Below, one piece after another: positions 1,688 through 10,861 of a stretch of DNA of 14,841 nucleotides. Each line of letters begins with the position of its first letter. Position 1 is the first letter of the stretch. Both the position numbers and the translations under genes were made by a program. Under the pieces are notes generated by a model. It was not told the origin of the DNA. It did not search any database and saw only the letters and a list, made by a program, of their open reading frames with translations. Origin of the DNA: Candidatus Fraserbacteria bacterium (GTDB taxonomy: Bacteria > Bipolaricaulota > Bipolaricaulia > RBG-16-55-9); contig JBBIOR010000044.1 in assembly GCA_037443265.1 (NCBI GenBank), positions 4,878 to 19,718 of the forward strand, read 5' to 3'.

Positions 1688-3429
1688 ATCCCGCGGGGAA
1701 CCCCCCGGACGCGTCGGCTCCGACGAGTCGATCGGCGCGGTATCGCCGCGTCATGGAGGCGATGATCATCGCGGATGAGGCGGGTCGCCTCGTCCCGATG
1801 CGGTTCACCCCCTCCCAGGAACTCCTCTGGAAGGCCGTCGCCCCCCGGCTCGATGCCCACGAGCGGTTGTGGTTTGTCGTGCTGAAGGGCCGTCAGGTCT
1901 ACGCGACGACCTTCTTCACCGCGCTCGCCTTCGTCCGGACGATGGAGCGGGCGAACACCAGCTCGGTCATCATCGCGCAGGAGATCTACTCCGCGGCGGA
2001 CATCTTCCGGCGAGCTCGGCGCTTCTATGAGCACCTGCCGCTCCCGCGGCTGCGGCCGTCGAGGGTCAGCGAGATCGAGTTTCAGCTCCCCGACGGGAGC
2101 TCGTGGCTCTCCGTGGCCTCCGCGGGGAAGGTCGGGAAGGGGCGGGGGACCACGAAGTCGGTCGTCCTCGCCTCCGAGGTCGCCTACTGGACGCAGCCGG
2201 AGGTCCTCGTCGGGCTGTTCCAGGCGGTCCCGGATCTCCCGGATACGGTGTGGATCCTGGAGAGCACCGCCAACGGGATGGTCGGCCTCGGCCAGCCGTT
2301 CTACGAGCAGTGGAAAGCCGCGGTGGATGGGCGGTCGAAGCTCATCCCGCTGTTCATCCCGTGGTACGTCGTCCCCAAGTATCACCTCGACCCTCCGCTC
2401 CCGGAGGACGAGTGGGACGACGATGAGAAGCTCCTCGTCGAGGCCTTCGGGGCGCAGGGGTGCGACGGCCGGGCGCTCGCGTGGCGGCGCTTCGTCATCG
2501 GCACCAAGCTGCAAGGGTCCCGCGAGCTCTTCGACCAGGAGTTTCCCTCGACGCCGGAGGTGGCCTTCCTCTCCTCTGGGCTCCCGGCCTTTGACGCCCG
2601 GGCAGTCCTCCGGCAGCAGCGGTGGATTCGTCCGCCCCGCCTCTGCGGGATGATGGGGGAGAATGGACGGTTCTCGCCGGCCCCGCGGGAACGGGCGTGG
2701 CTGCACATCTGGGAGGAGCCCCGCGACGGACACCAGTACGTCATCGGGGTCGACACGGCGGAGGGTATCCGCGGCGGCGACTACGCCTGTGCCCAGATCC
2801 TGGACATGGGCGAGCTCGAACAGGTCGCGATCATCCATGGTCACATCGAGCCGTGGGAGCTCGCCCGTCAGCTCGCCGCCGTGGGGAAGTGGTACAACCA
2901 GGCGCTCATCGCCGTCGAGGTCCAGAGCACCGGCCGGGCGGTGCAGGACTATCTCATCCGGGTCTTCCAATACCCGAACCTGCACGTGTGGCGCGGGCGG
3001 GCGGACACCATCCGGCGCCCGGCCGCGCAGCTCTACGGGTGGGAGACCAATGTCTACTCGCGACCGCTCCTCATCGAGGCGGGCCGCCGCGCGATCAACT
3101 CGGGGTTGGTCATCCTCCACGATCGATCGACGCTGGACGAGATCGCGCGCTTCTCGCGTCTCGACAACGGCCGGTACGCCGCGAGCGTGGGCCACGACGA
3201 TCGGGTTCTTGCCCTCCTCATTGCGCTCCGCTCTCGGGAGGAGAATTACGCTCCGGCCCGATCGGTGTCGGTCTCGGCCGCGTCGGAGTACCAGCTCTCG
3301 GACCCCCTGCCGTCGGGCGTCCGCGTCGTCCACTCGGCGGAGCAGCAGTTCGTGATGCGCAAGGAGATCCACGCCGCCCTCGTCCGCCGCGCGCGGTCCG
3401 CGGTGGACCGGTCGTGGATGTCCCTCTAG
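1684..3429 (+). CDS. terL: Terminase large subunit, 581 aa
   Basis: Q motif (FTPSQ); deviant Walker A VVLKGRQVYATT; GRG then Walker B VVLASE; coupling motif ESTANG; FDQEFP; RNase H-like nuclease motifs YVIGVDTAEG..GDY, AVEVQSTG, HDDRVLAL. The track start at 631 is an open GC-rich extension over other genes. Confidence 0.95.
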   Translation: MNPAGNPPDASAPTSRSARYRRVMEAMIIADEAGRLVPMRFTPSQELLWKAVAPRLDAHERLWFVVLKGRQVYATTFFTALAFVRTMERANTSSVIIAQEIYSAADIFRRARRFYEHLPLPRLRPSRVSEIEFQLPDGSSWLSVASAGKVGKGRGTTKSVVLASEVAYWTQPEVLVGLFQAVPDLPDTVWILESTANGMVGLGQPFYEQWKAAVDGRSKLIPLFIPWYVVPKYHLDPPLPEDEWDDDEKLLVEAFGAQGCDGRALAWRRFVIGTKLQGSRELFDQEFPSTPEVAFLSSGLPAFDARAVLRQQRWIRPPRLCGMMGENGRFSPAPRERAWLHIWEEPRDGHQYVIGVDTAEGIRGGDYACAQILDMGELEQVAIIHGHIEPWELARQLAAVGKWYNQALIAVEVQSTGRAVQDYLIRVFQYPNLHVWRGRADTIRRPAAQLYGWETNVYSRPLLIEAGRRAINSGLVILHDRSTLDEIARFSRLDNGRYAASVGHDDRVLALLIALRSREENYAPARSVSVSAASEYQLSDPLPSGVRVVHSAEQQFVMRKEIHAALVRRARSAVDRSWMSL

Positions 3430-3586: not shown

Positions 3587-3604
3587 CGGAGGAGGTATGC
3601 AGCG

Positions 3605-3934
3605 ATGCGAGGATTCCCCGCCGGTGATCACCCCCCCGTCGCGGACGCCCATGCGACTCTGGGGGAGACCTGGTCGTGCGACTGGGAGGACGAGGACGGA
3701 CGGAAGTGTCCGGCCGGCGGAACCCTCCGCCAGCGATCCGGACCGGCCTTCTACCGTCATGCCTGCTTCGGCCACGAGCCCGAGCGCCCCTACCCTCCCC
3801 AGCTCCGACGCGTCTACACCGTCTGCGCCCAACACGCCGACGCCTTCATGCGGACACATGTTGTCGGAGTATCGGCTGGGCGATCTCCCCGCGTTGCCAT
3901 CGACGCTCATGGACGGATTGTCCCGCTGGGCTGA
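3605..3934 (+). CDS. Cys/His-containing hypothetical protein, putative metal-binding, 109 aa
   Basis: SD GGAGGAGGT 3588-3596. GC-ending codons dominate up to about 3853. Motifs C-x9-C, CFGH and CAQH. Confidence 0.65.
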   Translation: MRGFPAGDHPPVADAHATLGETWSCDWEDEDGRKCPAGGTLRQRSGPAFYRHACFGHEPERPYPPQLRRVYTVCAQHADAFMRTHVVGVSAGRSPRVAIDAHGRIVPLG

Positions 3935-4072: not shown

Positions 4073-5833
4073 ATGCCGCAACCCCCGATGAGTCCACCCG
4101 GGGGGCTTCCCCCGTCGAGTCGGACCCCGGCGGAGGCCGAGATCTGGCGGTGGCTGGAGAGTGCCGCCGCGGAGGCCGCTCGCGCGCGGGAAGCTATCAC
4201 CTCGTTCCGCCGGATGCATCAGCTGCTCGATCTGTACGTCGGGCGTCACTACCCCGAGTCCATGCCCTCCTTCCGCCCGCCCGTGGTGATCAACGAGCTT
4301 CGGACGCTGATCCTCGCGGAGGCCTCCGATCTCGTCGATGCGGAGCCGCGGATCTACGTCATGAAAGACCCGCGGCGAGGGGGTCGAGATGTCCAAGCCG
4401 AGCGGGCGCTCCGGGCGGTCTGGGCCCGCGAGCGCGTGGACCTCAAGCTGATCTCGGCGGTGGTGTGGGCGTGCGCGGTGGGGACGGGGTTCCTCCGGGT
4501 CACGTGGGATCCCGACCGCAACCGCGGACAAGGGGACGTCGCGGTCGAGGATCTGGATCCGCGCGTCGTCCTCCCGGATCCCGATGCCCCCGATGAGACG
4601 TCCGCGCAATTCCTCATCTACGAGACCCGGGTCGACCTTCAGGACATCCGACGGCTCTTCCCCATCCGCGGTGCGCTCGTCTCCGACCAGCCGGTGGAGG
4701 CCCTCGGGTGGCGCGGAGAGGGATCGTTCCCGTCTCCCACGACGTCCTCCGCGACGGACTCCTATCTGATCTCGGGGCCGATGTCCCCCGACGTCTCGCC
4801 CGCCTCGGACGCCGCCGCCTACCGGAAGCGCCGGGTCCGGGTCCTGGAAGCGTACGTGCGGGATTCCTCGATCGACACGGTCGTCGAACCGCTCAAGGGC
4901 CCGGACGGGGAGTTCATCCGCGATGAGCGCGGAGAGATCCAGTACCAGACCACCCGCCGGCTGAAGTACGGCCCGCACGGGGTCCGGCGGATCGTCGGGG
5001 CCAACGGTGTCATCCTGTTTGATGGGCCGAACCCGAATCCCGGAGGGGATCACGGGTTAGTTCGCATCGTGTTGGAACCGACGCTCGGGCAGTTCTGGGG
5101 TCAGGGGTTCATTCAGCAGACCGGGGAGCTCCAGCTGGCGGCGGACAAGCTGGCCTCCGCCGTGGTGGAGAACGCCATCCGGCTCAATAACGGGATCATC
5201 GTCGTTCGGGGATCGACCGGCATTGACTGGGAGACCTTCGCCGGCCTCCCGGGGCAGATTGTCCAGTTGCAGCTCGGCGGCGATTTCCAGATCCAGTATC
5301 CGCCCCCCATGCCACCCGACATGGTCCAGGCCCCGTGGCGGATGCTGGATTTGCAGCGGCGCGTGTTGGGCTTCTCTGACCCGCGGATGGGCGTCGGCGG
5401 GAAAGGGAACGTCTCACCGGAGCTCACGGAGACCGAGATCTCGCAGGCGCAGGGTCCCACGCGGCTCCGGGCGCGCTTCCTCTCCGCGGCGGTGCAGCGG
5501 TTGGCCGAGCTGATCTTCGCCCGGATGGCGGCCTTCTACACGACGCCGCGGGTGATTCCGGCGGTCGAGGGCGAGCACTTCGAACCGACGGTGTGGCAGC
5601 CCCTGGAGGACGCGGAGGCCTACACGGTCTACGTGGACCCCGCCTCCTTCCAGTTGATGTCTCGGTCGCTGCTCCGCCGGCTGTCGCTCGCGCTCTACCG
5701 GCTGGGGGCGATCGACCGTCGGTCGGTCCTCGAAGCCCTGGGGTGGCCCGATTGGGAGCTGGTGGCCTCTCGGCTCGATGAGATGGAACGGGCGATGGCG
5801 GCCGCGAAGCTCGCGGAGCGGAAGCGGCGATAG
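4073..5833 (+). CDS. Portal protein (P22 gp1-like), 586 aa
   Basis: Size and position after terL. Typical segments PPVVINELR..EPRIYV, GTGFLRVTWD, DPRVVLPDP, VILFDGPNP, FWGQG..LQ, and a C-terminal GAID...LEALGWP. Confidence 0.92.
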   Translation: MPQPPMSPPGGLPPSSRTPAEAEIWRWLESAAAEAARAREAITSFRRMHQLLDLYVGRHYPESMPSFRPPVVINELRTLILAEASDLVDAEPRIYVMKDPRRGGRDVQAERALRAVWARERVDLKLISAVVWACAVGTGFLRVTWDPDRNRGQGDVAVEDLDPRVVLPDPDAPDETSAQFLIYETRVDLQDIRRLFPIRGALVSDQPVEALGWRGEGSFPSPTTSSATDSYLISGPMSPDVSPASDAAAYRKRRVRVLEAYVRDSSIDTVVEPLKGPDGEFIRDERGEIQYQTTRRLKYGPHGVRRIVGANGVILFDGPNPNPGGDHGLVRIVLEPTLGQFWGQGFIQQTGELQLAADKLASAVVENAIRLNNGIIVVRGSTGIDWETFAGLPGQIVQLQLGGDFQIQYPPPMPPDMVQAPWRMLDLQRRVLGFSDPRMGVGGKGNVSPELTETEISQAQGPTRLRARFLSAAVQRLAELIFARMAAFYTTPRVIPAVEGEHFEPTVWQPLEDAEAYTVYVDPASFQLMSRSLLRRLSLALYRLGAIDRRSVLEALGWPDWELVASRLDEMERAMAAAKLAERKRR

Positions 5834-5843
5834 CGGGGGGACG

Positions 5844-6287
5844 ATGCGCGCAGCGTATGTCGTGGTCTCGTGCCCGACCTGCCGAGAGCCCCGGTACCAA
5901 TCGGCCCAGCCGCTCGACCTCGACCGGCTGCCCGACCGGTTGTCACCGCTGACCTTCGCCCCGGTGGCCCCGTCCGTCCCGCCCCCGCCGCAGAGCGGAC
6001 GGGCCATCTGTCATGTCTGTCACGGCCCGCTTCAGTTCCACGTGATGGATCCCCGGACGGCTCGAATAGACCAGGGGGAGTCCTCGTCGGATTCCCCGGA
6101 GGAGGCCTCGCCGGAGGAGGTCCCCGTCGGGACCCCGCCCGGGGGCTCGCCCCCTCCGGTCTCGACCGTGGAGCTCTTCCGGGCGGAGGCGGGGGAGCGG
6201 GTCCTCGGGATCCAATCGGTCGGCTCCTCGCTCAGCCCGGTGCTCCTCCTGCTCACGAGCCGGCGGGTCCTCCTCGTCGGCCGATAG
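5844..6287 (+). CDS. Zinc-finger (CPTC...CHVC) protein with acidic/Pro linker and short beta C-terminal domain, 147 aa
   Basis: ATG 10 nt after the portal stop with GGGGGGA upstream (track start 5778 overlaps the portal). Two CxxC motifs. Confidence 0.75.
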   Translation: MRAAYVVVSCPTCREPRYQSAQPLDLDRLPDRLSPLTFAPVAPSVPPPPQSGRAICHVCHGPLQFHVMDPRTARIDQGESSSDSPEEASPEEVPVGTPPGGSPPPVSTVELFRAEAGERVLGIQSVGSSLSPVLLLLTSRRVLLVGR

Positions 6288-6311
6288 CCACAGGATGAGG
6301 ATGCCACAGCG

Positions 6312-6515
6312 ATGACGGAGATTCTTCGTGCCGCCCAGCGCGGGGAGTGGATCGAGGTCCGGGGGGCGACGACCCTTCCGGGTGAGCGAACGCCCCGCGT
6401 CGTCGTTGCGGAAGTCCACGCCAGCGAAGTTCGCCGGCGGGGGGATGAAGCCCTCCGCCGGGCGATCGAGACGACCGCCCGCTACCTCGCAAGCGGAGAG
6501 GGCTCCGGGGTGTAG
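6312..6515 (+). CDS. Hypothetical protein, 67 aa
   Basis: Fills the gap in the operon; GAGG upstream; globular alpha/beta-like composition. Confidence 0.7.
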   Translation: MTEILRAAQRGEWIEVRGATTLPGERTPRVVVAEVHASEVRRRGDEALRRAIETTARYLASGEGSGV

Positions 6516-6518
6516 GCG

Positions 6519-6887
6519 ATGCCCAGCATCTGGGAGATGCCCGGGGGAGGGTGGGAGTCCATGGAGGACCTGGAGCAGCCCTTCGGGCCGTATCCGTCGG
6601 ACCTCGCCGCCGGGGCCGCGTTTGGCCTCCCGGCCCTTCGCGGAGGGCTCCCGGCTCCGCTGTCCTGGCGGTCGTCGCTGCCGCCCCTGCGCCCCATCCC
6701 GCCGCTCTCCGCGGCATCCGCGCCCGGGAGCCTTGACCCGTGGGCGCAGTTGACGCTGGCGTTGACGAGGCCTGGTGGGTTCCCCGCCCGCCCCGACTGG
6801 GGCTGGCTGCCTCCCGGCGGGTGGAGCTCGCTGCTCTGGGAGCTGCTCCGCTCGGGCGGCTGGTCATTCACCCCGGCTGGTCGTTGA
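6519..6887 (+). CDS. Low-complexity Pro/Gly/Trp-rich protein, 122 aa
   Basis: Starts 3 nt after the previous stop and ends at the SD of the next gene; three GGW motifs. Confidence 0.65.
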   Translation: MPSIWEMPGGGWESMEDLEQPFGPYPSDLAAGAAFGLPALRGGLPAPLSWRSSLPPLRPIPPLSAASAPGSLDPWAQLTLALTRPGGFPARPDWGWLPPGGWSSLLWELLRSGGWSFTPAGR

Positions 6888-6900
6888 AAGGAGGAGGAGG
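6887..6900 (+). promoter_or_regulatory. Extended Shine-Dalgarno AAAGGAGGAGGAGG
   Basis: Direct reading; complementary to the 16S anti-SD in several registers; precedes ATG 6903. Confidence 0.85.
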
Positions 6901-6902
6901 CC

Positions 6903-6935
6903 ATGCGCCGGAAGTCCCATCGTCGCAAGCGGTAA
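6903..6935 (+). CDS. 10-aa highly basic micropeptide MRRKSHRRKR (protamine-like)
   Basis: ATG CGC CGG AAG TCC CAT CGT CGC AAG CGG TAA behind the strongest SD in the window; occupies its own non-overlapping slot in the operon. Confidence 0.72.
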   Translation: MRRKSHRRKR

Positions 6936-6959
6936 CGACCCGACCCCGAGGAGGGAACC

Positions 6960-7115
6960 ATGCCAAAGCCCAAGATCATTGAGGGTCCGCTCTTCAAGAA
7001 GGCGGACAAGTCCTCGGGGCTCGGCTCGGGAGAGTCGGCCCCGTGGATGCCGCCGGACGTGGACTGCCCGGATCCCCTCGGGTATCTCCACAACACCAAC
7101 AAGAAGGGGAAGTAA
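6960..7115 (+). CDS. Small Lys/Pro-rich protein, 51 aa (MPKPKIIEGPLFKKADKSSGLGSGESAPWMPPDVDCPDPLGYLHNTNKKGK)
   Basis: Not in the ORF track. SD GAGGAGGG; GC-ending codons; TAA 3 nt before the next ATG. Confidence 0.82.
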   Translation: MPKPKIIEGPLFKKADKSSGLGSGESAPWMPPDVDCPDPLGYLHNTNKKGK

Positions 7116-7118
7116 CCG

Positions 7119-7574
7119 ATGCCTCCGTTCGACGCCGCGCCGGGTGATCCCCGGATGATGATTGAGGCCCTCTCCGCGCTGGGGGGGTCGTCCGGCGCCC
7201 TGGCGATGCCGGGGGGTCCCGGGGCTGCGCCGGGGGCTTCGGCACCCGGCGTCGACCCCCGGCTCCTGCGGATCCAGGCCCTGGGGCTCTCGGCGCTCGA
7301 CCGCGTCTTGCAGCGGGACCCGAGCGGCGAGCTAGCCCTGGAGCAGATCCGGCGGGCGCTGGAACTCTCGCAGACGCTCCTCGCGGCGGTGCTGCCGATG
7401 GTGACCGCGTGGAATCCCAAGGTCGCCAAGGACCTCCACGTCATCGGGCGTCAGATTGCCGATGCCCGTATGAACTTGAGCAAGGAGGACGAGCCGGGCC
7501 CGCCGCCCGAGGCGATGATGTCGGGGATGCCGGCGAATACCGGGATCCCCGGAGGCCCCGCGGCGCTGGGCTAG
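7119..7574 (+). CDS. Head-module protein with helical core and Gly/Pro/Met-rich termini, 151 aa
   Basis: Coupled to the upstream gene; strong codon bias; lies just upstream of the scaffold gene. Confidence 0.8.
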   Translation: MPPFDAAPGDPRMMIEALSALGGSSGALAMPGGPGAAPGASAPGVDPRLLRIQALGLSALDRVLQRDPSGELALEQIRRALELSQTLLAAVLPMVTAWNPKVAKDLHVIGRQIADARMNLSKEDEPGPPPEAMMSGMPANTGIPGGPAALG

Positions 7575-7590
7575 CCCGCGGGCCGTTCCC

Positions 7591-7647
7591 CCTCCGATGA
7601 CCCCTCGACGGAGTCCTTCCGGACCACCCGTCGGGGGAGTTGAGAGG
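7591..7647 (+). promoter_or_regulatory. Long stem-loop in the scaffold 5' leader covering the purine-rich RBS region
   Basis: 7602-7611 pairs with 7628-7637 (10 bp, one G-U). Inner hairpin GTCC-TTCC-GGAC at 7613-7624. Outer imperfect stem 7591-7598 / 7639-7647. Confidence 0.55.
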
Positions 7648-7658
7648 CGAGCCGTTCC

Positions 7659-8426
7659 ATGCCTACCATCGAAGAGGTCTTGGCGGATAAGAAGACCTAC
7701 CCCGACGACCTGAAGATCACTGTCGCGGATGGGGTGGAGACCACCCTCGGGCAACTTCGGGGAGGATACTTGAGGCAGGCGGACTACACGAAGAAGACGA
7801 CCGAGCTCGCGCGCCAGCGCGAACACCTCGAACAGCAGTGGCAGCAACAGTCCGCCGCCCTGGCCGACGCGGAACGCCGACTCCAGGAGCTCGCGGCATA
7901 CATCGTCCGAGCCAACCCGGGGGCGACGCGCGATGAGGTCAGTGAGTACTTGCAGCATGACCCCGTGGCATCCCGGCTGTACCGGGAGGCCCTCTGGCAG
8001 CGGCAGGTCCTCCAGACGATGGGCCAGGCCCTGTTGGACCTGGACCGCCGTCTGATGGAGCGGGACCGCGAGGCGATGGCGGATCAGCACCGCCGGGTCC
8101 TCGCGACCCTCAAGCAGCAGGATCCGGATCTGGACGAGGAGGCGCTCGTCCGCTTCGCCCGGGACAACTTCATCCCGCGGCTGGATCACGCCTACACGCT
8201 CTTCAAGCACGACGAGATCCTTCGTCGGGAGCGCGAGCGGGCCGCGGAGGAGGCGTCCAAGAAGGCCTACGAGAAGGCGAAGCTCGAGCTCTCGGCCCCG
8301 CCGATCCCGCTGTCCCCGCGAACGGCCTCGCCGCCACCGGAGACCCCGCAGACCCTTGACGAGGCGGCTCAGAAGGCGACCCACGATATGGATGTGATCG
8401 GGCCGCTGATCGGAGTCGCCCCGTAA
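7659..8426 (+). CDS. Capsid scaffolding protein, 255 aa
   Basis: Motif VETTLGQLRGGYLRQADYTKKTTELA, typical of podovirus-type scaffolds; long coiled coil; Pro-rich linker before a C-terminal helix; directly upstream of the capsid gene. Confidence 0.88.
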   Translation: MPTIEEVLADKKTYPDDLKITVADGVETTLGQLRGGYLRQADYTKKTTELARQREHLEQQWQQQSAALADAERRLQELAAYIVRANPGATRDEVSEYLQHDPVASRLYREALWQRQVLQTMGQALLDLDRRLMERDREAMADQHRRVLATLKQQDPDLDEEALVRFARDNFIPRLDHAYTLFKHDEILRRERERAAEEASKKAYEKAKLELSAPPIPLSPRTASPPPETPQTLDEAAQKATHDMDVIGPLIGVAP

Positions 8427-8442
8427 TCGGAGGTTTCCATCG

Positions 8443-9420
8443 ATGCCGGCGATTGGTGCAGGCCTGAGCCAGCCCCCCTTCGCGCTGGTCAAGACGGCCG
8501 ACGCCTTCACCCAGAAGTACTTCTCGCCGATCGTCGCGGACGCGGTCTTCAAGCCGTCGCCGACGTGGTGGCGGTTGCTCCGCCGGGGCCGGAAGCTCCA
8601 CGGCGGGGCGATCGTGTGGCCGGTGCTCGCCGAGGAGGTCACGGGTGGGGGTGCCTACTGGGGGGCGCAGATCCTGGACACGACCATCTACGACACGGTG
8701 CGCCCCGCTCAGCTGGAGTGGAAGGCCTACTACCAGCCGATCGTCATCCCGTACACGGACCTGGTGTTGAACAGCGGTCCGACCCAGGTGGTCAATCTGA
8801 TCAAGGAGAAGGAGGAGGAGGCGATGGCCAACCTCCTCCAGAAGCTGAGCCGGGCCCTGTTCAAGGTCCCGCCGCAGAACACGGCGCAGGATCTGGACTC
8901 GCTGGTCGACGCGGTGGCGTCGGACGCCAATGTCTACGCCGGGATCGACCGGGCGACGAACGCCTTCTGGAAGCCGTTCGTCCGGACGACCGCGGAGGCC
9001 ATCAGCGACGCCGCGCTCCAGACCGTGTATAACGCGATCGTGTACGGGAACGAGGAGCCCGATACGATCATCACCACCCACGCGGGCTTCAACAACTTCC
9101 GGGCGCTCCTGGTGGGGAACATCCGGTACCCGGACCCTGACCAGGAGACGATTCGCGCCGGCTTCCGCCGCCACCTCGTGTTCAACAACGCGGTGGTGGT
9201 CCAGGACCGGTGGGTGGCGGACTCCCCGACGGTCGCGATGTACTTCCTCAACACCCGCTATATCGACGTCCACTTCCATGAGCGGGAGTACTTCGTCGTC
9301 GACCCGTTCGTGCGGCCTCATAACCAGCGGGTCCTGATCTCGGGGGTGTACGTGATGCTGAACCTCCAGGTCCGGAACCCGCGGCTGCAGGGCGCCCACA
9401 CGGGCCTGACGAACGACTAG
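8443..9420 (+). CDS. Major capsid protein (HK97 fold), 325 aa
   Basis: SD GGAGGT; position after the scaffold. Segments GGAIVWPV, AQLEWKAYYQPIVI, YAGIDRA..FWK, PDTIITT, MYFLNTRYI, NLQVRNPRLQG match podovirus-type coat proteins. Confidence 0.92.
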   Translation: MPAIGAGLSQPPFALVKTADAFTQKYFSPIVADAVFKPSPTWWRLLRRGRKLHGGAIVWPVLAEEVTGGGAYWGAQILDTTIYDTVRPAQLEWKAYYQPIVIPYTDLVLNSGPTQVVNLIKEKEEEAMANLLQKLSRALFKVPPQNTAQDLDSLVDAVASDANVYAGIDRATNAFWKPFVRTTAEAISDAALQTVYNAIVYGNEEPDTIITTHAGFNNFRALLVGNIRYPDPDQETIRAGFRRHLVFNNAVVVQDRWVADSPTVAMYFLNTRYIDVHFHEREYFVVDPFVRPHNQRVLISGVYVMLNLQVRNPRLQGAHTGLTND

Positions 9421-9940: not shown

Positions 9941-10861
9941 ATGGCTGATCTTCGGAATTTGATCCTCTCGATCCGCGCCCAGATCCCGGATCCGGCGGAG
10001 GCCGATGACCCCGACCTCGACGGGCCGGCCTTCCGGACGGCGGATCTCTTGAGGTGGGTCAATGATGCGGGGCGTCTGATCGCCTCGCGGGTCCCCGCCA
10101 TTCAGGATTGGTATGGGTTCCCCTCCGAGATTGGCCAGGATGTCTACGAGCTCCCGGAGTGGATTACCTCCGTCGAGCAGCTCTGGTATGAGCTGCTCCC
10201 GGCGACGCGATCCTCCGTCTTCGAGGGGACGCTGATCTCCAAAGTTCAGGGCCGCGCCTGGTGGTTTGCCCCCCACGCGGTCGGATCCCGGCCCGCGATC
10301 CACCTCTGGCCGACGCCCTCGGAAGCGGGGACGTCCACGACCCTCGCGGCGGACCTGTCCGCCTCGGACACGACGGCCATCCTGGCGTCGACCGCGGGCT
10401 TCCGCGCCTACGGGTTCGTCCGCCTTGGCAGTGCAGGGGCGGAGTTCAATCCGCTCCCCTTCCCTGAGGTGGCTCGGTATGCGGCCCTCTCGGGGTCACA
10501 GCTGACCGGGTTGGTCCGTGCCCAGGGGGGAACCATGGCCGTCGACCTCTCGGCGGGGGCCCCCGCCGTCGAGTGTAACGTCTTCCTGCGGTGCTTCCGG
10601 CTCCCCCGCCCGGTGTTCTCCGCGCGGGATCCCTTCGAGCTCCCGCCGGGCCTCTGGCCCGTCGTTGAGCTCTACGTCCTCGCGAAAGTCCGGGAGGCCG
10701 AACAAGATCACGCGACGGCCGCGCAGCTCCGCAATGAGTTCTACCAACTCGTGGACCAGCTCGGGGCGAAGTACCCGCTCGCGGTCGGGGCCCGCCAGGG
10801 CCTCCAGGTCCGTATGGCGTGGCCCGTCACGCTCTCGCCCCGGGTGGTGATCATCCCCTAA
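9941..10861 (+). CDS. Head-tail adaptor (tail tubular protein A / gp4-like) with inserted beta domain, 306 aa
   Basis: N-terminal helices ending LLRWVNDAGRLIA, GQDVYELP, IHLWPTP, and C-terminal FELPPGLWPVVELYVLAK..EQD..A, typical of adaptors; position between capsid and nozzle. Confidence 0.8.
   Translation: MADLRNLILSIRAQIPDPAEADDPDLDGPAFRTADLLRWVNDAGRLIASRVPAIQDWYGFPSEIGQDVYELPEWITSVEQLWYELLPATRSSVFEGTLISKVQGRAWWFAPHAVGSRPAIHLWPTPSEAGTSTTLAADLSASDTTAILASTAGFRAYGFVRLGSAGAEFNPLPFPEVARYAALSGSQLTGLVRAQGGTMAVDLSAGAPAVECNVFLRCFRLPRPVFSARDPFELPPGLWPVVELYVLAKVREAEQDHATAAQLRNEFYQLVDQLGAKYPLAVGARQGLQVRMAWPVTLSPRVVIIP

Follow-up and report, generated by a model that had tools for sequence, protein, structure and literature searches.

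A polycationic micro-gene, probably one of a conserved family, in the head operon of a P22/SU10-like phage

The window, as we call the whole 14,841-nucleotide stretch of DNA that was analysed, carries a phage head operon whose genes run in the order portal, p169, p67, p122, micro-ORF, p51, p151, scaffold and capsid (Table 1). Judged from the matches of the portal, scaffold and capsid proteins, the head module appears to be of the P22/SU10-like type and the phage is a probable podovirus; a match to the SU10 adaptor scored 23.9 bits, under the Pfam cut-off of 27. The contig itself probably derives from a phage and came into a metagenome-assembled genome (MAG) by mis-binning, and its capsid gene is present in 2 of 61 genomes of the lineage to which that MAG is assigned, the window's own being among the two. 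A scan of positions 5700-8600 for promoters and terminators returned one weak promoter-like site, at 7640, and no terminator. In the slot, by which we mean the portal-to-p151 interval, neither PHROGs nor Pfam recognised a protease gene.

Table 1. Features of the head operon, in positions of the window
Feature	Position	Strand	Evidence and remarks
Portal protein, P22/SU10-like	4073..5833	+	phrog_156 (3e-25), PF16510 (9.9e-14), PF23899 (3.1e-09); upstream edge of the slot
p169 (family F6) and p67	5778..6515	+	Small genes after the portal gene, in relatives too
p122	6519..6887	+	Pro/Gly/Trp-rich ORF; GC3 0.84-0.92 in its frame; TGA stop at 6885-6887
Shine-Dalgarno (SD) run of the micro-gene, AAAGGAGGAGGAGG	6887..6900	+	Followed by CC, then the micro-gene ATG
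Micro-gene	6903..6935	+	10 codons and TAA, product MRRKSHRRKR; ATG at 6903-6905, TAA at 6933-6935
SD of p51, GAGGAGGG	6948..6955	+	13 nt past the micro-gene stop; -12.1 kcal/mol
p51	6960..7115	+	Small Gly/Pro/Ser-rich protein with motifs GPLF and PDPLGY; the window's form of family F3
p151 (family F1)	7119..7574	+	Helical, with Pro/Gly-rich ends; kept between F3 and the scaffold gene (tblastn, clustering)
Head scaffolding protein	7659..8426	+	phrog_3927 (E 4.8e-10)
Major capsid protein	8443..9420	+	phrog_9953 (E 2.6e-36); bait for collecting relatives

A sequence-only reading of this DNA had given the micro-gene a slot of its own between portal and scaffold. The location stands, but the micro-gene is not the sole occupant, given that p169, p67, p122, p51 and p151 lie there too. 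For these five, and for the relatives' families F3, F5, F6, F9, F18 and F1, Pfam, PHROGs and NCBIfam hold nothing usable, the best of the profile matches being that of one F9 protein to DUF3008 (E 0.099, below the cut-off of the model). The likeness of p67 to family F5 is one seen only by eye, and p122 has relatives in 0 PHROG families, in 0 Pfam families and, by tblastn, in none of 94 related loci. The assignment of p51 to F3 comes from its motifs, matched by regular expression and by eye against the F3 list; BLAST did not join them. The AlphaFold model of p151 (mean pLDDT 73.5) has four helices and finds no fold match in the PDB at E <= 0.001.

The micro-gene is too short for gene finders. 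Direct reading of the sequence bears out the SD, the CC spacer, the ATG, the ten basic codons and the TAA that had been described, as well as the SD belonging to the next gene. The codons that follow the ATG are CGC CGG AAG TCC CAT CGT CGC AAG CGG, so that the product has 5 Arg, 2 Lys, 1 His and 1 Ser and a net charge of +7, His excluded. The first A of AAAGGAGGAGGAGG is the final base of the p122 stop codon, and 24 nt separate the end of the micro-gene from the start of p51. Paired with a generic anti-SD, AAAGGAGGAGGAGG has a duplex energy of -11.9 kcal/mol, which lies near the 1st percentile when every 21-mer of the window is ranked, and its purine run is the longest among the SDs compared. 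On the same scale p51 reaches -12.1, the ORF at 3597 -12.4 and the capsid gene -10.2 kcal/mol; the claim that the micro-gene has the strongest ribosome-binding site of the head operon thus holds as a place among the top three, not as the first.

How readily would such an ORF arise by chance? When the search is limited to ORFs of 8-30 codons in which Arg/Lys make up 60% or more and the SD core spans 5 nt or more, exactly one is found in the window with both strands counted. First-order Markov simulations that matched the window in length and dinucleotide composition were run 300 times, and 1 of the 300 held at least one such ORF (mean 0.003). Loosening the limits (SD at least 4 nt, Arg/Lys at least 50%) brought the simulation mean to 0.083. 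Among sequencing runs, those listed as holding window DNA comprise one DNA run and no RNA runs. The Logan assembly of that single run is identical to the window over 6300-7700, at a depth of 17.6. Since this run probably comes from the sample in which the window originated, the identity excludes only one assembler's slip at the stops.

Relatives were found via the capsid protein, which has 148 homologues. As a single query in IMG/VR the capsid protein gave no confirmed relative, and IMG/VR relatives were retrieved with the capsid alignment A1 instead. No cultured member of the capsid clade was found, the best cultured capsid match being Mx9 at 30% identity, and at the DNA level positions 5800-8500 matched none of 50,697 phage records. 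The closest capsid relatives, 73% and 72% identical, occur only in Logan assemblies and lie outside the slot comparison. Among relatives whose DNA was compared, the closest is L096 (capsid 66% identical), with a 59-aa basic protein in its slot and no micro-ORF. Another relative, L097, was found in a Terracidiphilus MAG, which hints at soil hosts of the Acidobacteriota type.

We scanned 52 non-redundant loci, the window and 51 relatives, for ORFs behind an SD that encode 8-30 aa, half or more of them Arg/Lys. The plus strand of the slot (63.3 kb) holds 26 of them, a count that, like the others given for these loci, overstates independent support because the loci are interrelated and some are near-duplicates (L010/L011, L068/L069). 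In the controls we found 0 on the minus strand of the slot, 0 on the plus strand outside it (365 kb) and 2 on the minus strand outside; under looser rules the four figures are 52, 1, 5 and 3, in the same order. A scan of related phages for an SD-led basic micro-ORF at the syntenic position had been named beforehand as the test that could refute the sequence-only reading, and it came out in favour: 25 of the 33 loci with a complete slot are positive, 24 of them with a stand-alone gene, as the hit in L008 is an internal start of a longer gene. The other eight complete slots have no micro-ORF, and L009, L041 and L042 have no polybasic slot ORF of any kind; the micro-gene would therefore be dispensable, or replaceable by host cations. 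In three cultured phages that are distantly related, Mx8, Mx9 and Bradyrhizobium phage ppBjS10J-1, neither the slot nor its surroundings contained an SD-led polybasic ORF. A motif scan of IMG/VR with the pattern E-R-R-G-R-x-K-G gives no measure of family spread, since among the 80 loci listed as matches one is a micro-ORF, on L005's own contig, and 29 are one conserved off-frame stretch on contigs that, all but three, share one sample number.

The codons of close relatives have changed far more than their peptides. L019 and L075 differ by 10 synonymous and 0 non-synonymous changes over 24 sense codons; the corresponding counts are 6 and 1 for L019 and L020, 7 and 1 for L020 and L075, and 4 and 1 for L068 and L069, while a 15-residue basic tail is identical in L077 and L093 despite 4 synonymous changes. 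As read from these codons, the micro-gene family is under purifying selection on its peptide. One might still suspect a chance ORF, the window being 70% G+C and Arg codons being abundant in such DNA. As far as sequence data go, this explanation is ruled out by the 1 in 300 simulations, the enrichment by slot and strand and the synonymous bias, and we give it almost no credence. The same three lines of evidence point to a real gene family, and the micro-gene of the window is, in our estimate, very probably a real and conserved gene.

What do its members look like? All 31 that we catalogued, and the micro-gene of the window, are ORFs of at most 35 codons with an ATG or GTG behind an SD; among the 31, ATG starts 30 and GTG one, and each has a GGAG-type motif upstream. 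Their products are 10-28 residues long and end in an Arg/Lys/Gly/His tail, at least half Arg and Lys, that runs up to the stop, as in ...RKKHRK, ...GHKRK and ...KHKRY; in the window 7 of 10 residues are Arg or Lys and the end is ...HRRKR. The window's micro-gene also lies on the head-gene strand, in the portal-p151 interval and directly 5' of the PDPLGY gene, and F3 is the conserved downstream neighbour in the family, separated from the micro-gene by 8-186 nt where the F3 start was clear (17 loci). Duplication is frequent, with 1-3 tandem copies per locus, and the same kind of tail is found fused to the slot families F9 and F18. Longer members begin with a short hydrophobic or acidic N-terminal piece (e.g. 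...TVLERRGR...), whose ERRGR core is absent from MRRKSHRRKR. Closest in form to the latter are the 10-14-mers of L085, L027, L089 and L034, a likeness for which a low-complexity 10-mer allows no statistic. Eleven relatives' peptides (20-24 aa) matched 0 families in Pfam (E <= 10) or NCBIfam, curated models of small basic ribosomal proteins included, the window's 10-mer being below the 20-residue minimum. We found no description of such phage micro-genes in the sequence libraries or in the literature searched, which lay outside subscription journals; within that scope this conserved polycationic family of the head operons is undescribed.

The fused tails of F9 and F18 raise the thought that the window's peptide is itself an extension: the p122 TGA shares its frame with the micro-ORF, and read-through would add a basic C-terminus, ...AGR-x-KEEEA-MRRKSHRRKR, to p122. 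A shared frame is a one-in-three chance, however, and the micro-ORF has its own ATG and near-optimal SD, just as the relatives' micro-ORFs stand alone with theirs. There is no sign of recoding either, as genes in the window end with TGA, TAA and TAG alike, and we consider read-through very improbable. The strong SD, the short gap and the next SD just behind the stop would also suit a purely cis-acting upstream ORF, whose translation loads ribosomes or hands them to p51 and the genes behind it, the peptide being irrelevant. Termination-reinitiation is plausible as a side effect. As the whole explanation it is improbable, because peptide sequence and composition are kept while codons change, Arg is written CGN in 176 of the family's 183 Arg codons and hence forms no purine-rich ribosome-binding tract, the distance to the next gene varies, and that gene has a strong SD of its own. 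We propose that the ORF is actually translated and that its product would be the shortest form of a polycationic micro-protein family.

What, then, could such a peptide bind? Its Arg-rich composition and the E-R-R core of its relatives recall the RNA-binding arginine-rich motif (ARM) at the N-terminus of the lambda and P22 N proteins, which is likewise short, rich in Arg and built round an E-R-R-type core. The peptide would in this case control the translation or stability of the late mRNA by attaching to one of its hairpins, and an alignment does place a GC hairpin directly after the stop in L019, L020 and L075. Against it, the RNA fold of 6840-7000 is no better than shuffles (z = +0.85; 162 of 200 shuffles as good), only 24 nt lie between the micro-gene and p51, the corresponding gap ranges from 8 to 186 nt among relatives, and the spacers of 8 relatives share no consensus structure. 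The ARM of lambdoid N, moreover, opens a larger early antiterminator that binds boxB RNA, whereas the micro-gene is stand-alone and late and ends after 10 codons. An RNA-binding role is, on balance, rather unlikely. Short polycations also bind ribosomes and membranes as well as DNA, and the peptide might act late on host ribosomes, nucleoid or envelope, for example in host shut-off or as a help to lysis. It is composition that speaks for such a target; the gene sits in the head module, away from lysis and early genes, the peptide has no amphipathic or hydrophobic segment, and none of the 11 relatives' peptides matched any family, ribosomal proteins included. We regard a host-directed function as quite unlikely.

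The position of the micro-gene directly ahead of F3, p151, scaffold and capsid would also fit an assembly cofactor, a polycation that attaches to acidic surfaces, whether on the scaffold, on p151, on the portal or inside the capsid, and either nucleates the procapsid or aids displacement of the scaffold as DNA enters. Scaffold (net charge -8) and p151 (-3) are acidic, and the ERRGR core and hydrophobic N-terminal pieces of the longer members are what a specific protein partner would call for. The acidity of these neighbours is modest, though, and the variable copy number and length and the presence of tails on unrelated small domains fit bulk charge better, which makes an assembly cofactor unlikely.

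Bulk charge is at the centre of the role that we propose instead, that of a DNA counter-ion, packaged or active in packaging; it is the leading candidate, if not quite a probable one. The peptide would be made late and in bulk, alongside the scaffold and capsid proteins, and would work through its charge by binding nucleic acid, most likely the phage DNA during packaging. It would then remain inside the head and, as a counter-ion supplied by the phage itself, take the place that polyamines and Mg2+ have in other tailed phages; in vitro packaging of lambda, T7 and P22 DNA requires polyamines. We count the top-three SD within a tightly packed late operon towards bulk late expression, and the variable copies and the tails fused to F9 and F18 point to a dosage-type electrostatic binder of low specificity. 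In longer members the N-terminal piece could serve as an anchor that attaches the tail to a protein of the head, and MRRKSHRRKR would be the bare tail. Other observations weigh against a counter-ion. From the conserved ERRGR core and the pieces at the N-terminus one would expect a partner more specific than bulk DNA, and an unattached 10-mer may not persist for long in the cell. With a charge of +7 for each peptide, simple arithmetic requires thousands of copies to offset even a few percent of some 100,000 phosphates (for an assumed genome of ~50 kb). Finally, the micro-ORF is missing from the eight complete slots and from the three cultured phages named above, and L096 has its 59-aa protein instead.

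Virus-encoded polycations are familiar from other systems. Protein J of the Microviridae (phiX174, G4, alpha3; ~24-38 aa) is very basic; it is taken into the capsid together with the genome and neutralises the charge of the DNA, one end being basic and the other tethered to the capsid. Like J, the micro-protein is tiny, highly basic and encoded by the virus in its morphogenesis module, and it would likewise be packaged. J, in contrast, belongs to ssDNA phages that have neither portal nor terminase, whereas the micro-gene is found in portal-bearing phages, and the polarity is reversed: J has a basic N-terminus and a hydrophobic C-terminus, and the family described here has a basic C-terminal tail, so that tethering would be the mirror image of that in J. 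The 11 relatives' peptides gave no match to the J family in Pfam. Adenovirus mu and VII, baculovirus P6.9 and the protamines are short Arg-rich proteins that condense dsDNA in the virion or the sperm head; they range from 19 to ~170 aa, have no sequence relation to the micro-proteins and serve core-type genomes of eukaryotic viruses rather than naked DNA packaged by a motor. The internal proteins IPI-III and internal peptides of T4 are pre-loaded in the prohead and kept with the DNA, but they depend on a capsid-targeting sequence and processing by the prohead protease, and their sizes and sequences are unrelated to those of the micro-proteins.

A nearer precedent comes from mycobacteriophage Patience. 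According to the paper on it (PMC4324244), the genes for gp10 and gp11-18 and gene 111 lie after the portal gene and before the protease gene, and their products were found by mass spectrometry in CsCl-purified particles; gene 111, which annotation had missed, was discovered in this way. By our computation gene 111 encodes 37 aa with a net charge of +14 and gp10 has 65 aa and +26; in the paper the word "basic" occurs 0 times, the charge of these proteins passes unremarked and no role is proposed for them. We count these polybasic virion proteins as a precedent for the counter-ion, and they soften the earlier contrast with tailed phages as generally thought to rely on polyamines and cations. 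The likeness is that of a tailed phage with a polybasic product encoded after the portal gene, presence in the particle having been seen for Patience only. By eye, several Patience proteins and several micro-ORFs begin in the MARR/MAKR manner. Patience is nevertheless a siphovirus of Actinobacteria, and most of its basic proteins are much longer (65-295 aa).

Taken to the whole clade, the counter-ion would become a broader proposal, which we offer tentatively as possible but rather doubtful. A clade of tailed phages of soil, sediment and groundwater would encode its own protamine-like counter-ions of 10-28 residues, make them in bulk with the capsid proteins and load them into the head with the DNA or ahead of it. 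Packaging and virion stability would thereby be freed from host polyamines and from the ionic strength outside; anchor-plus-tail forms would tether the DNA to the shell as J does, and the decapeptide would be the free tail.

ORFs of this length are dropped by gene finders, which is how a head-operon component that is conserved and under selection went unseen. For this clade a simple annotation rule follows, to seek SD-led Arg/Lys-rich micro-ORFs between the portal and PDPLGY genes. If the products are packaged polycations, they would bear on an old problem, namely how the electrostatic cost of DNA packed at near-crystalline density is met in tailed phages. They would also give genetics access to a new variable that influences virion stability, ejection pressure and habitat adaptation. 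If the clade-wide proposal is true, these phages would be an exception to the textbook picture of naked DNA neutralised by small ions only. Should the peptides serve another role, as assembly cofactor or RNA binder, they would still constitute a compact and testable family near the lower limit of gene size.

The micro-ORF lies among small ORFs that separate the portal and scaffold genes of the window, in the order p169, p67, p122, micro-ORF, p51, p151. The sequence-only reading had called a ten-codon gene here, and it was right: in the window sequence, an ATG led by a Shine-Dalgarno (SD) run opens an ORF for MRRKSHRRKR that ends in TAA. Profile searches of the window identified the larger genes around it and gave no family match for the micro-ORF or for any of p169, p67, p122, p51 and p151; p151 is modelled as a helical protein, with no PDB counterpart. 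G+C makes up 70.2% of the window, and from ~5850 to ~8400 a single coding frame stands out by its third-position GC.

Features of the window around the micro-ORF
Feature	Position	Strand	Basis or remark
Large terminase	ORF ending at 3429		profile search
P22/SU10-like portal	4073-5833		profile search
p122	6519-6887		
SD run AAAGGAGGAGGAGG	6887-6900	+	followed by CC, then ATG at 6903
Micro-ORF (MRRKSHRRKR)	ATG 6903, nine further codons, TAA 6933-6935	+	window sequence
p51	6960-7115		
Scaffolding protein	7659-8426		profile search
Major capsid protein	8443-9420		profile search
SU10-adaptor-like protein (weak)	9941-10861		profile match below Pfam cut-off

With a duplex energy of -11.9 kcal/mol against a generic anti-SD, the SD of the micro-ORF ranks among the top three of 16 starts examined. 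It is therefore strong, and not uniquely the strongest of the head operon as had been claimed: p51 (-12.1) and an ORF at 3597 (-12.4) score above it, and the capsid gene reaches -10.2. The next gene, p51, begins 24 nt downstream and has an SD of its own, as the sequence-only reading also noted; a rival explanation for so short an ORF in this place is that it is a mere uORF. On the other side, the TGA of p122 lies 15 nt upstream and in the same frame, and a second rival makes the peptide the tail of p122, produced by read-through. p122 itself is an odd Pro/Gly/Trp/Leu-rich ORF with GGW/PPGGW repeats and coding-type GC3, for which no search made found a relative. The RNA around the micro-ORF is no more stably folded than shuffled sequence (z = +0.85), and no terminator or convincing promoter was found in its neighbourhood. 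Such an ORF is hardly expected by chance: 300 first-order Markov simulations, scanned on both strands for 8-30 codons, an SD core of at least 5 nt and at least 60% Arg + Lys (R/K), gave a mean of 0.003, and the window holds 1.

Seven consecutive ORFs, from p169 to the scaffold gene and including the micro-ORF (window 5778-8426), have start coordinates divisible by 3. This is 2.6 kb of one reading frame broken only by six stop codons (chance ~(1/3)^6); the homologues in L096, a related locus, lie in mixed frames.

The window is positions 4878-19718 of a 25.4-kb contig, C44, within a 1.69-Mb MAG. C44 has 70.5% G+C against 56-63% in the other 43 contigs, which marks it as most likely a phage contig placed in the wrong bin; inside the window C44 carries phage genes only. 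Thus, the MAG taxonomy is probably uninformative about the phage host. A second, independent assembly of the sole public run holding this DNA, probably the source sample, is identical over 6300-7700.

Phage records searched at the DNA level gave no match to the window, and among cultured phages the capsid protein has distant matches only (best, Myxococcus phage Mx9, 30% identity). A large protein collection holds 148 capsid homologues, with identity down to ~46% among the 120 matches listed. We used an alignment of 44 of them to retrieve related loci: 21 from IMG/VR, 71 from JGI and other metagenomes and 2 from GTDB genomes. After dropping duplicates and loci in which less than 1.2 kb preceded the capsid gene, 52 were kept, including the window. 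ORF clustering revealed a conserved order: portal (F4), F6 (p169-like), F5, variable small genes (F7, F9, F10, F18), F3, F1 (p151-like), scaffold (F0) and capsid (F2). Neither 11 micro-peptides of relatives (20-24 aa) nor the neighbouring proteins match a family in Pfam, NCBIfam or PHROG.

A first scan of portal-to-capsid intervals found SD-led polybasic micro-ORFs in many relatives. For a controlled count, the slot was defined independently of the micro-ORF, as the stretch between the portal match and F1. ORFs in the 52 loci were counted if they spanned 8-30 aa, were at least 50% R/K and had an SD core of 4 nt or more. The + strand of the slot (63.3 kb) has 26 and its - strand 0; outside, the + strand (365 kb) has 0 and the - strand 2. 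With the rule relaxed to ORFs of up to 35 aa that have a net charge of +5 or more and five or more R/K among the ten C-terminal residues, the counts are 52 and 1 on the + and - strands of the slot, and 5 and 3 outside. By this relaxed rule, the check that the sequence-only reading had asked for, SD-led basic micro-ORFs at the syntenic position of relatives, was positive in 25 of the 33 complete slots, a figure that takes in the window; in L008 the ORF is an internal start inside an F9 gene, leaving 24 loci with stand-alone micro-ORFs. Because the loci are related to one another, some being near-duplicates, the counts cannot be read as independent events.

Among the 8 complete slots without a micro-ORF, L004, L006 and L031 carry instead a 53-64-aa F9 or F18 protein with a polybasic C-terminal tail, L007 an F9 protein whose tail is weaker, and L096, the closest locus compared (capsid 66% identical), a 59-aa basic protein. 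The slots of L009, L041 and L042 hold nothing polybasic of either kind, and no such micro-ORF was found in Mx8, Mx9 or ppBjS10J-1.

F9 (L004, L008, L031, L037, L039) starts MP.xSExQRRFMG and has a weak DUF3008-like match (E 0.099); F18 (L005, L006, L034) contains ..ISHL.R.KGW.Q.RAVA... Both sit in the micro-ORF slot, and their polybasic C-terminal tails resemble the micro-peptides, as though such a tail could move between genes as a unit. F3, a conserved and so far undescribed Gly/Pro/Ser-rich protein of 45-90 aa, has SPLY and PDPLGY motifs and no family or structure match found; p51 (..GPLF....PDPLGYL..) was assigned to it by motif, BLAST giving no link. F3 always lies between micro-ORFs and p151, 8-186 nt downstream of the micro-ORF in 17 loci with a clear F3 start, and may be a functional partner of the micro-peptides. 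The 186-nt spacer of L019 contains, by eye, an opposite-strand tRNA-gene-like stretch (3620-3700; GGATTTGAACC, complement of a T-loop). Just upstream of the micro-ORF or F3, L052 (1010-1090), L009 (4620-4660) and L042 (4560-4610) show a terminator-like hairpin with a T-run, which suggests a separate transcription unit for their capsid operon, beginning at that point; no comparable signal is present in the window. A motif scan also returned a near-identical 26-codon start-less stretch in at least 29 IMG/VR contigs (L103-L181), all but three with one sample number, probably an off-frame reading of an abundant phage's conserved gene unrelated to the micro-ORF family.

The family includes MARRRGRKKHRK and MRKRGRKKKRY (both L027), MARRKHKRGGKRK (L089), MRKSRKHKRY (L085), MARRGRRRHSRKGSRK (L021), MEMIRERRKKGRHAKRK (L045), MLEHVICERRGRKRGRRR (L068) and MSTQPEHTVLERRGRKKGRKGRRM (L019, L075), with two tandem copies each in L022 and L061. 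The basic tail reaches the stop codon in all members; the 31 catalogued start with ATG (30) or GTG (1), all behind a GGAG-type motif. Judged by codon comparison, the micro-gene is selected as a peptide, since most differences within close pairs are silent: synonymous and non-synonymous changes number 10 and 0 for L019-L075 (24 sense codons; stop TGA/TAG), 6 and 1 for L019-L020, 7 and 1 for L020-L075, and 4 and 1 for L068-L069. Between L077 and L093 the 15-residue tail is identical despite 4 synonymous changes, and the 3 replacements all fall in the N-terminal five residues. Distant pairs keep composition, not sequence (L045-L081: 2 and 7). A purine-rich RNA tract as the conserved element is ruled out because 176 of 183 Arg codons are CGN. 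The spacers of eight relatives share no common RNA structure; a GC hairpin directly after the stop is common to L019, L020 and L075.

On these comparisons of sequence, the micro-ORF is a conserved, selected, SD-led micro-gene within the late head operon. Its copy number and length vary, and within the slot its tail also occurs joined to small, unrelated domains. Such a pattern is expected of a low-specificity, dose-dependent electrostatic binder; enzymes and sequence-specific regulators would not be expected to show it. Such a peptide would bind a polyanion. Phage DNA, bound while it is packaged or afterwards, would be the likeliest target, given that the micro-gene directly precedes the genes for scaffold and capsid. 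The packaged DNA-condensing peptide of the sequence-only reading becomes a packaged or packaging DNA counter-ion, plausible, unproven and proposed here tentatively. Its further rivals are a protein-binding assembly cofactor, an ARM-like RNA-binding peptide and a polycation directed at the host.

Microviridae J and the core peptides of adenovirus and baculovirus are analogues of a DNA counter-ion of this kind. A published precedent is the mycobacteriophage Patience, with highly basic particle proteins encoded between portal and protease: genes 10-18 and gene 111, the latter of 37 codons and found only by MS, yield particle-associated products in CsCl-purified virions (PMC4324244, text and Table 1). 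Net charges that we computed from the GenBank record are +14 for gp111, +26 for gp10 and +6 to +49 for gp11-18, a property that the paper leaves undiscussed (PMC4324244).

We found no account of such tailed-phage micro-genes in full-text literature, a coverage that omits most subscription journals. The micro-gene family is thus undescribed, while virus-encoded polycationic peptides are already known as a kind. To this family the window adds a minimal, anchor-less 10-residue form, a link to the F3 'PDPLGY' gene and a link to the tail-bearing F9 and F18 proteins.
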